Shown here: piece after piece, positions 19,401 through 22,400 of the stretch
Layout of the letters: each line of letters begins with the position of its first letter
Numbering within the stretch: position 1 is the stretch's first letter
IMG/VR virus record: IMGVR_UViG_2526164632_000026
Source: a virus
Taxonomy: Duplodnaviria > Heunggongvirae > Uroviricota > Caudoviricetes
Direction: 5' to 3' (one strand)
Length of the DNA: 25,029 bases
Position numbers: made by a program

Positions 19401-22400
19401 CCGGCCCTAAGACATCAATCATCTGTTCTCCAATGACTAGTCTAAAAACTAGTATTAAGACTATCACTTATTTAAGTGATACTGGTTGTCTGGAGATTCA
19501 GGGGGCCAGTCTAATTCTCTATTTGATCATCCCATGCATGATATTTTTCTGCCCCAATAATCTCATGAGCTTTATTTTGTACTTTCTGACCGCCTGCGTC
19601 GGGGCCAACAACACCTATGTCAGTACCTAATCGATAGCGAATCCAGTCATTCGCAAGGGAGTTCCATTCAATACCAGTGTGAGTGTATGCACTAAAAGCT
19701 CTGTCTCCAGTTACAGCTGTGTTGTGTCTTTTATTACTGCCTGATGGAGAGTAAATATCTTGCGCAATATGGAGAGATAATTGGCTCGAGTCTGAGATAT
19801 CGTGGCTATATCCCAGAAATAAGCCTTGTGAGTAATCATCTCTGTTTTCATGTTTATTGCCATAAATATCATTAAGTATTGGTTGAAACTTCCCTGCATC
19901 ATCATTTGCTAATGATAATGCAAGGCTGTTCGCGATAGCTGAACACGTGGTAAATGACAGAGCAATAAAGACGCCAGCGATGACACTTTTTTTCATATGT
20001 TATTGTCTTCCTTTTTTTGAATGGTGCGCGTATTTTACATACATGAGTTTGTAATACAAGGTGCGTAATCAATATGATGTTTTATAATTGCGTGAGACAA
20101 TTGATTTATTTGTTTTTTATTGCGGTTTTTATTATCTTTTAATGTAACGGTGTTTTTATTAAGTGTGTTTGCGTGGTGTTTTATGTTTTTTATAATTTTT
20201 ATTTTATTAAATTTAAATGCATTAGTAATGGCTATTCTATATAGCAATATAAGAACTGTTACAAAAAAAGGGGGGGCAATTACAGGTAGTTATGGATGAT
20301 GAGTGAAACAGATATTGGAGAACCGGGGAATGAATGATGTCTGAGTCTTATATATCAGAACTCCTTCGCTGTCGCTGGGGGCTCCTGTGCTTATGTCGTT
20401 TCCCCGATTCGGTTTTGAACGATTACCGAATGTTGAAGAATTATGCCAAAATATAGAAAGGATTTACTGCATGAATACCCAATATTTACAGTATGTTCGT
20501 GAGCAACTTATGGCAGCTACTGCTGACTTGAACGGAGCAACGAAAGGCCAGCTCGAAGCCTGGCAGGAGCATGCACAATTTGATACTGGTACATACAAAC
20601 GAAAGAAGCCGCGCATTCTGGATGTGGTAACTGGCAAGATGATTACGCTGGATAATACGCCGACTTCCGGTAAGCAGTCGTACGCAAAAGGTTCATCCAT
20701 TGCTTTGGTCAGCCCGGTTGAATTCTCAACCTCTTCATGGCGCCGCGCGGTTTTGTCTCTCGATGAACATCAGAAAGCATGGTTGCTTTGGTGTTACAGC
20801 GAAAGCGTTCGATGGGGGCATCAGGTCACCATAACGCAATGGGCATGGAGCGAGTTTAAAGATTTGTTAAGTAACAGAAAAATTGCAGGTAAGACACTGG
20901 ATCGCCTGAAGACGTTAATCTGGCTGGCTGCACAGGATGTGAAGAGCGAACTTGCAGGGCGTGAGGCCTATGAATACCAGACACTGGCATCATTGGTGGG
21001 AGTGACAACAAAAAACTGGTCCGAGACATTTACTGAACGCTGGGTTGCAATGAAGCACATTTTTCTACAGCTTGATAGTGATGCTTTATTGCTTGTGACG
21101 AGAACACGTTCAAAACAAAAGGCAGCATTTTTACAGCAAAATATTGCAAAACTGGATTAAAAGCCATATACTTCATGCAAATTTGGTATGTTGTAAAAAA
21201 TGTATAAACCCGCTGCCGAGTGGGTTTTTTTATGCCCTGAGTTGTACTTGTACGGTAAACATGCTGGCTGCTATGTAATAGAGTTTTTTTAGCCTGTAAC
21301 CTCTTGACGGCATTGAATTGCTTTTGTTATGAGTTGTAAGCCAATGTTATCATCTTGTATTGGGGTGGTTATGAAGGATGGTGCGCTGCTCAGGAGTTCT
21401 TCACTTTTTATTGCCTACATGGGATGCCTTGGATGGGGGAGTGCTTATTTCTATGGATGGGGTACTTCTTTTTACTACGGCTTCCCATGGTGGATTGTAG
21501 GTGCAGGTGTTGATGATGTTGCCAGAAGTTTATTTTTTGCAGTTATCGTCATTGCTATATTTCTTATCGGTTGGGGTATTGGTGTTGTATTCTTTTTCGC
21601 AGTGAAAAGAAAACATTCTATGCAAGAGCTAAATGTATTTCGCCTTTATTTTGCTGTGGAATTATTGTTTGTGCCGGCAATTATTGAGTTTTCTATATTG
21701 AGACAGAAGATTCAGGTACCTCTTTTGCTACTGTCAGCAGCGATTGCGCTGGCGGTTACAATTTCGATAAGATCTTATGGGCGATTTTTATCGGTATCAT
21801 GCTTCTATGATAAGCCATTTATAAAAAACATTTTTTTGAGATTGTGATGATTGCTTTTGTGGCATATTTTTGGCTTTTTTCATTTCTGACAGGATATTAC
21901 AAACCACAGTTTAAGAAAGAATATGAAATGATTAATTATAATGATGGTTGGTATTATGTTCTTGCTCGTTATGATAATTGTCTGGTTTTGTCTACTTCTT
22001 TCAATGCAGGTAGTAAAAGGTTTGTCATTTATCAATCAGCACAAGATAAGAATCTTCAGGTTGATATTGTAAGGACCAGAATTTAATTGGCTGCATAAAT
22101 AATATTTTAAGTTGCAAGTTGGCTATTCGTAGGAATAGAACCTTAGGCATGCTGAATGCGTTTTCTGAACATTGTTTTATAAACTGTGTCTGCTTGCTGT
22201 TGTGATCCTGCTTTTAGTGATGGTGATGATGGATTTCACCAGCAGGATAATGTTGGTACTGACTGATGGCGCTCTGGTCTGCGGCATTGTGGTATTGCTG
22301 TGGCCGATGATGAAAGAACAGAATGAATAATTCTTGACTTTTTTGTTTACTGTTTATTAAAAAATCAACCGCATGGTGAATCCTCCTTGGAGGGGCTAAA

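Follow-up and report, generated by a model that had tools for sequence, protein, structure and literature searches.

An apparent two-gene membrane module at the Stx position of an imm434-type lambdoid prophage is most probably one frameshifted STM1630-family gene

The nearest described counterpart of the locus analyzed here lies in phage 434 (OL657226), where CPT_434_68 encodes a "putative membrane protein" (UMO75332.1). In phage 434, as in the DNA studied here, this gene is found behind a Q82-type antitermination gene Q, the late promoter pR' and the terminator tR', and is followed by the same DUF3927, esterase and holin genes. A further described relative, STM1630 of Salmonella Typhimurium, is up-regulated in macrophages and has its own mapped promoter, in which single-nucleotide polymorphisms in the -10 element silence the gene in the ST313 strain D23580 (PMC6785131). 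It has also been listed among the genes that are co-regulated with Salmonella pathogenicity island 2 (PMC2639726). We analyzed a stretch of 25,029 nt from a virus of the Caudoviricetes (IMG/VR record IMGVR_UViG_2526164632_000026; hereafter the window, meaning this whole stretch). Late in this window two small, AT-rich open reading frames (ORFs) had been predicted, from the sequence alone, to form a translationally coupled two-gene membrane module of no known family, at the position where Shiga toxin (Stx) phages carry stxAB. We find that positions 21371-22086 most probably represent a single STM1630-family membrane-protein gene, frameshifted in this copy, that belongs together with a DUF3927 gene to an AT-rich cargo cassette (probability about 0.9). 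The feature is thus an already annotated cargo gene, without an assigned function, and not a new two-gene system.

Two reading frames and one A tract

Both ORFs of the proposed pair are present on the plus strand. ORF1, recovered from the ORF listing and by direct reading, occupies positions 21329..21847 (172 aa, or 158 aa when read from the ATG at 21371), and ORF2 occupies positions 21844..22086 (80 aa from the GTG at 21844), with an ATG at 21847. As had been described, they are AT-rich (36.2% GC for the membrane gene, against 46.9% for the window) and contain membrane segments as judged by hydropathy. The conserved start codon is the ATG at 21371, rather than position 21329, as this Met is invariant among homologues. 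ORF2 lies in the -1 frame relative to ORF1, and the two meet in the sequence GTGATGA, of which positions 21845-21847 form the TGA of ORF1.

The window is 99.8% identical to phage 434 over positions 21150-22400, and phage 434 has one coding sequence of 744 nt where the window has two ORFs. Compared base by base, this interval contains only two differences, both of them 1-nt homopolymer deletions. The first shortens a T8 run to T7 in the tail of tR'. The second turns an A7 tract into A6 (21823-21828, plus strand), 20 nt 5' of the ORF1 stop, and is the sole change within the gene. Insertion of one A restores a 238-aa ORF that is identical to the phage 434 protein from the conserved Met onward; the product of CPT_434_68 (identical to WP_001299184.1) is in that sense the same protein, and the window differs from phage 434 in having A6 instead of A7 and, with it, ORFs of 158 and 80 aa. 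With one A missing, the frame meets a premature TGA 20 nt further on (21845..21847, plus strand), so that the last 80 codons look like an ORF of their own that starts from an internal Met. The apparent translational coupling is accidental, because the TGA of the shifted frame happens to overlap this internal Met codon of the original frame (21847-21849). The junction GTGATGA arises only from the missing A, and the claim of an ATGA-type coupled gene pair could not be upheld. The Prokaryotic Genome Annotation Pipeline (PGAP) reads the identical DNA of E. coli UTME-9 in the same way, as "hypothetical protein; frameshifted."

The intact form is by far the more common one. An 82-nt probe across the A tract was used to search 5426 complete E. 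coli genomes and located the gene in 682 of them, about one in eight (1212 copies, often two to three per genome). The form that is one base longer was found in 666 of these 682 genomes, and A6 was the best match in the remaining 16. These 16 genomes derive from cow, pig, human, monkey, fish and cat isolates, and therefore do not represent one lineage. A relative is encoded at 181 loci of IMG/VR; our statements on these loci cover the best 80 of the 181. The match is uninterrupted in all 80, and the A7 tract is present in 79. Thirty full-length homologues (45-100% identity), from E. coli, Citrobacter, Cronobacter, Klebsiella, Enterobacter, Salmonella and Yersinia, can be aligned without a break through the site, with invariant residues on either side. 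The same single-chain architecture was found in 16 distant members (13-28% identity), and across both sets the single ORFs measure 230-262 aa, with one outlier of 307 aa; among the distant members looked up were proteins of Neisseria, Actinobacillus, Gallibacterium, Avibacterium and Klebsiella electrica. Absence of the pair from relatives had been set beforehand as grounds for giving up the two-gene module. What we found in phage 434, in 666 of the 682 genomes, in the best 80 IMG/VR loci and in every full-length homologue was one ORF.

The original prediction had also raised the possibility that ORF1 and ORF2 encode a toxin-immunity (toxin-antitoxin-like) membrane pair. That two small membrane ORFs seem to overlap is the only point in its favor, and it has to be set against the one continuous ORF in essentially all relatives and the absence of a family match to any toxin or immunity protein in Pfam, PHROG, NCBIfam and PADLOC. 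We give this explanation hardly any weight. The product of the intact gene would instead be a stand-alone inner-membrane protein with five transmembrane (TM) segments, and not one half of such a pair.

Could the A tract itself be a switch? This might take the form of phase variation, with A7 as the ON and A6 as the OFF state, or of -1 frameshifting on A_AAA_AAC, by which A6 would be decoded into a full-length protein with one Lys-to-Asn change. The sequence ATA AAA AAC conforms to the classical X_XXY_YYZ motif and is in phase in the ORF1 frame, with ORF2 in the -1 frame. In addition, A6 has arisen, or has been called, repeatedly in unrelated strains, and truncated members are common in the family. 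However, the common allele is in one frame and needs no shift, a run of 7 nt is short for a contingency locus, and nearby intergenic homopolymers show the same 1-nt changes. Moreover, the paralogues of Salmonella, Citrobacter, Shigella and enterotoxigenic E. coli (ETEC) have no A tract here, and no RNA structure was predicted 3' of the site (z = 0.14). On these last two grounds programmed frameshifting and phase variation were rejected; we consider a switch very unlikely.

The homopolymer changes are not restricted to the A tract. The 5.5 kb that the late part of the window has in common with phage 434 (19514-25029) contain two substitutions as opposed to six 1-nt indels, all of which fall in runs of 6-8 identical bases; five shorten A7 or T8 runs, and one extends G6 to G7. 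Since all six are homopolymeric, they point to slippage or sequencing error. A seventh 1-nt homopolymer change relative to phage 434 is located at 17703, so that the complete series (17703, 20012, 20270, 21225, 21823, 24481 and 24628) stands against only a few substitutions within these 7 kb. In the early region the ratio is ordinary when compared to phage 434, at 44 substitutions to two indels in 11.6 kb. The contrast is suggestive of homopolymer mis-calling, or of hypermutable runs, in the late AT-rich region. Among genomes that are otherwise identical, T7/T8 and A6/A7 vary independently of each other, and the changes are therefore recurrent, through replication slippage or through homopolymer mis-calling in assemblies. 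Judged from the sequence, A6 is about as likely to stem from a recent mutation that truly inactivated the gene as from an error in sequencing or assembly.

The finding is mainly a correction, in that an apparent new two-gene membrane module is most probably a catalogued gene broken at a homopolymer. Such splits arise both from long-read assemblies and from real slippage.

Protein family and predicted topology

No known family had been recognized for the two ORFs, but the protein proved to be catalogued. The full-length product belongs to phrog_1521 (E = 1.9e-154), the intact product WP_001299184.1 currently carries the PGAP name "STM1630 family protein," and the precomputed Pfam assignment PF27470, labeled "TfpB," is present on all 108 homologue clusters. 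The window copy shows similarity to the family over its full length, including the N-terminal aromatic and glycine-rich motif and the C-terminal β-domain, but does not form the single uninterrupted ORF of approximately 230-260 aa. The family is small: a search of 1.84 billion representatives gave 70 matches at E ≤ 0.001, and many of these are fragments. Truncated members (about 150-200 aa, or C-terminal pieces of approximately 80 aa from the same Met) are frequent among E. coli and Avibacterium entries. As the gene is AT-rich and has T7/T8 and A7 runs in several places, frameshifts or mis-assembly may affect it unusually often.

Other searches gave little. Scans of the full-length protein with Pfam and NCBIfam returned nothing significant, in copies of these databases that lack the PF27470 model, and a sequence-profile search of the PDB with the protein was likewise negative. 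With PADLOC-DB v2, neither the 247-aa protein nor the DUF3927 protein nor a 62-aa ORF further downstream had a match at E ≤ 1. The label "TfpB" finds no support in the database sources, none of which names any member TfpB. It may go back to a Moraxella tfpB ORF. In the literature searched, TfpB denotes a type IV pilus ATPase and pilus classes, which are unrelated to the PF27470 family. That the ORFs are known lysis accessory proteins had been named as a finding that would speak against the module; such a role (holin, antiholin or spanin) was rejected as there is no PHROG or Pfam match of this kind, and as plasmids and chromosomes carry paralogues with no lysis genes beside them.

Topology prediction, together with a search for remote homologues and structures, produced a predicted architecture but no informative structural relative. 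Hydropathy indicates four strong TM segments and an aromatic and glycine-rich N-terminal segment. An AlphaFold model based on close homologues only was not usable (predicted local distance difference test, pLDDT, 58.5), but a rerun that included distant homologues gave a good model (pLDDT 82.5, predicted template modeling score 0.76). In the model from this diverse alignment, TM helices are predicted at residues 10-36, 47-79, 88-111, 116-137 and 155-181, followed by a five-stranded β-domain of approximately 55 aa (residues 184-235). Hydropathy and the positive-inside rule suggest that the N-terminus is cytoplasmic and the C-terminal domain periplasmic. The split in the window coincides with the predicted cytoplasmic loop between TM4 and TM5.

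The position of the break is of interest for the possibility that the split is tolerated. In that case both pieces would be made, the 158-aa piece with TM1-4 and the 80-aa piece with TM5 and the β-domain, the second by termination-reinitiation at UGAUG, and they would come together again in the membrane as a functional protein. A break in a predicted cytoplasmic loop is compatible with this, as are the overlap of the stop codon with an in-frame ATG (TGATG) and a weak GAG 7 nt upstream. Furthermore, the representative library contains fragments that start from that Met, and split forms recur often enough to have PHROGs of their own, phrog_14371 and phrog_3985, which match exactly the two frameshift halves. 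Yet these fragments are explained equally well by frameshift errors and contig ends, A6 is a minority of 2% scattered over unrelated strains, and in no lineage do the halves appear as separately evolving genes. Reassembly of the two pieces is in our opinion clearly improbable, and we retain the reading of one frameshifted gene. Under that reading phrog_14371 and phrog_3985 are spurious families, already seeded by treating the halves as separate genes.

The cargo cassette and its place in the prophage

The location given in the original prediction, between Q, pR' and tR' on one side and nanS-p and the holin gene on the other, is borne out by a Pfam match for Q, by promoter and terminator scans and by the Pfam domains of the esterase. 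The Q82-type antitermination protein gene is located at 20471..21160 on the plus strand (Phage_antiter_Q, E = 1.7e-91), as are all further elements of the late region described below; the protein is designated Q82-like in the phage 434 annotation and Q by PGAP. The promoter scan places a pR'-like late promoter, by consensus match only, at 21144..21172 (TTGCAA-N17-TATACT). It overlaps the end of Q and lies where the late promoter of a Q gene is expected. A tR'-like intrinsic terminator was detected by the terminator scan at 21206..21231, with a stem at 21206-21227 followed by T7; phage 434 has an annotated terminator here, with T8. At the other end, a nanS-p-type esterase gene (22629..24479) carries the Pfam domains DUF1737, SASA and DUF6645, and the holin gene is found 3' of it. 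Homology to Stx phages begins at position 22616 of the window, and in an Stx1a phage stx1AB lies directly upstream of that point and of the homologous esterase gene. The statement that this is the stxAB slot, the first in the Q-dependent late operon, is therefore correct.

Within this slot, the terminator, the STM1630-family gene (PF27470; 21371..22086, 238 aa when intact, with the 1-nt deletion inside) and the gene for a DUF3927 protein form a mosaic cassette (21207..22396, 38% GC) that is 96.8% identical by blastn to an O157:H7 prophage with a lambda-type Q. The DUF3927 gene (22172..22330) encodes a small membrane protein with two helices and is assigned by Pfam with 53 bits (cutoff 25). It follows the membrane gene in 79 of the 80 IMG/VR loci and is absent beside the non-phage paralogues. 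The gene order in prophages is constant, Q, membrane gene, DUF3927, an optional esterase and holin (79 of the 80 loci, with either Q type). The Q type was lambda-like at 46 loci and Q82-like at 32; LpxR was found only alongside Q82-type loci, and stx at none of the 80. The real two-gene cassette in prophages thus consists of the 238-aa gene and the downstream DUF3927 gene. Features of a moron that were observed are a deviant base composition, a terminator at the 3' end and movement between prophages with different Q types.

A strong intrinsic terminator (22516..22542), with an 8-bp GC stem and T8, ends the cassette; it was called by the terminator scan and is also annotated as a terminator in phage 434. 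A 62-aa ORF (22387..22575), named "membrane protein" in the phage 434 annotation, is a doubtful gene. It had no family match in the Pfam, PHROG and NCBIfam scans, contains the hairpin of this strong terminator (22516-22534) and falls outside the cassette shared with O157, and for these reasons probably is no gene.

As to expression, the pair had been credited with its own sigma70 promoter (TTGACG-N17-TTATGA). The TTGACG box of this proposal recurs in the O157 copy and in the copies on ETEC plasmids, but TTATGA agrees with TATAAT at one of six positions, and the scan did not call it. A candidate gene-specific promoter region lies at 21304..21353. It comprises TTGACG (21304-21309), an 18-nt spacer and TGn-TATGAG (21325-21333), or alternatively TTGTTA-18-TATCAT (21324-21353); the second candidate was found by the scan. 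The ETEC copy keeps approximately 70 nt 5' of the ATG, the TTGACG box included, which on sequence grounds is consistent with a candidate promoter that travels with the gene. In our reading the intact gene and the DUF3927 gene form an AT-rich moron cassette placed directly after Q, pR' and tR' and closed by the terminator at 22516-22542. On induction the cassette would head the late transcript that results from antitermination by Q, and the conserved upstream TTGACG region may allow Q-independent expression in the lysogen.

The remainder of the window is that of an imm434-type lambdoid prophage, 99.6% identical to phage 434 across positions 2713-14373. The integration site adjoins a ybhC-like pectinesterase gene on the minus strand (1..1284), next to which lie a lambda-type integrase gene (1419..2489) and, further on, the gene for a 434-type LexA-like repressor (9600..10232). 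A YlcG-like ORF is found 5' of the Q gene. Three insertions set the window apart from phage 434. One, of 1331 bp (18183-19513), carries transposase ORFs of the IS3 family, is of the size of IS2, and divides the lpxR lipid A deacylase gene, which is intact in phage 434. A second insertion element (14387-16339) breaks the ninG/rap region; with ORFs for a 340-aa transposase with rve and helix-turn-helix domains and for a 260-aa protein, it looks like a member of the IS21 family. The third is an extra 8 bp (17584-17591; ATTTTATT), a local duplication just 3' of a remnant of the N-terminus of lambda Q. As these 8 bp are also present in E. coli UTME-9 and WL1467, they represent a real polymorphism, unlike the homopolymer changes.

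Copies outside phages, possible function and known systems

Outside phages, the gene stands alone. On ETEC plasmids a paralogue is oriented divergently from eltAB (encoding heat-labile toxin, LT), approximately 870 bp away. In the Shigella plasmid pINV the paralogue is CP0168, in a part rich in insertion sequences, and 106 Shigella plasmids carry a copy. The Salmonella paralogue adjoins sseJ and that of C. rodentium adjoins lpxR; homologues in Enterobacter and Mangrovibacter are situated at the edges of mobile elements. In the stretches retrieved for comparison, these arrangements cover positions 2987-5714 (ETEC plasmids), 5001-5717 (pCP301), 3349-5717 (Salmonella) and 3863-5717 (C. rodentium). 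An analysis of conserved neighbors among the distant homologues yielded mobile-element cargo positions only, with no recurrent partner.

We tentatively, and at less than even odds, regard the intact protein as a stand-alone, envelope-acting factor in lysogenic conversion or host adaptation. A more far-reaching reading would make the STM1630/PF27470 family a dedicated companion of acquired virulence loci, with an envelope role in the release or tolerance of AB5 toxins or effectors, or in envelope remodeling in the host, and with the A7 tract providing occasional ON/OFF variation. The neighbors in question are the stx slot of lambdoid prophages, eltAB, sseJ, lpxR (in phage 434 and C. rodentium) and the loci of Shigella pINV. 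Their association with the gene may be no more than a shared history on mobile DNA, and a dedicated companion seems improbable.

The main functional rival to envelope adaptation is superinfection exclusion. Here the intact protein would be a prophage-encoded membrane protein for exclusion or abortive infection, comparable to SieA of P22, gp15 of HK97 or RexB of lambda, along the lines of one of the candidates named in the original prediction. Cargo genes with a possible promoter of their own are typical of exclusion functions, which counts for this explanation, and so do the nature of the gene, which encodes a polytopic inner-membrane protein and is cargo in prophages as well as in other mobile elements, and its carriage by 682 of the 5426 E. 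coli genomes, often in two to three copies. On the other hand, no PADLOC model matched, neither sequence nor fold shows similarity to known exclusion proteins, and paralogues persist on chromosomes or virulence plasmids at a distance from phage genes, the Salmonella one being induced in macrophages (PMC6785131). We judge an exclusion function to be unlikely.

Several observations weigh against the interpretation of the locus as a frameshifted gene for an envelope-acting factor with its own promoter. The A6, T7 and G7 variants of the window are shared by three UTME assemblies, which fits a real haplotype or a platform-specific error, and sequence alone cannot decide if the source organism truly has A6. 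At the -10 element the promoter candidates are weak, and the scan matches are no more numerous than in shuffled sequences. The searches by Pfam, NCBIfam, PADLOC, PDB profile and fold gave no sequence or structural relative of known function. The functional guess draws only on genomic neighborhoods. Deletion of STM1630 left intramacrophage replication unchanged (PMC6785131). The same gene came up in a motility screen; as the resistance cassette was suspected of polar effects, the gene was later examined again in a deletion free of the cassette (PMC4534456). The family, a narrow one of membrane proteins that is present in roughly an eighth of the complete E. coli genomes and sits in the late-operon slot of Shiga toxin, is a reasonable, but not an urgent, target for further work.

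Among known systems, P22 SieA, HK97 gp15 and lambda RexB are small polytopic inner-membrane proteins carried as prophage cargo, and the resemblance to them is one of possible mode of working only; no similarity in sequence, profile or fold was detected. The DUF3927 protein resembles TciB of phage P1 (Pfam DUF3927, E = 3.4e-14; phrog_1470, "TciB-like"). This label is annotation only, DUF3927 is not linked to the non-phage STM1630-family copies, and the literature on TciB, phage 434 and DUF3927 yielded nothing useful and no tested function for TciB or DUF3927. The Salmonella homologue, which we took to be STM1630 from the neighborhood of sseJ and the PGAP family name, has 238 aa, is 46% identical over the full length, is likewise AT-rich, horizontally acquired cargo, and shares with the protein of the window the N-terminal motif GWGSAYFYGWG..YYGFPWW and the C-terminal domain; it differs in its chromosomal location beside sseJ, without Q, DUF3927 or lysis genes. 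Finally, the gene has no sequence relation to stxAB, encodes an integral membrane protein instead of a secreted toxin, and has a promoter of its own only as a candidate. What it has in common with stxAB and lambdoid morons is the slot at the head of the late operon, the deviant base composition, the terminator at its end, and the expression expected from Q-dependent read-through and possibly from its own promoter.

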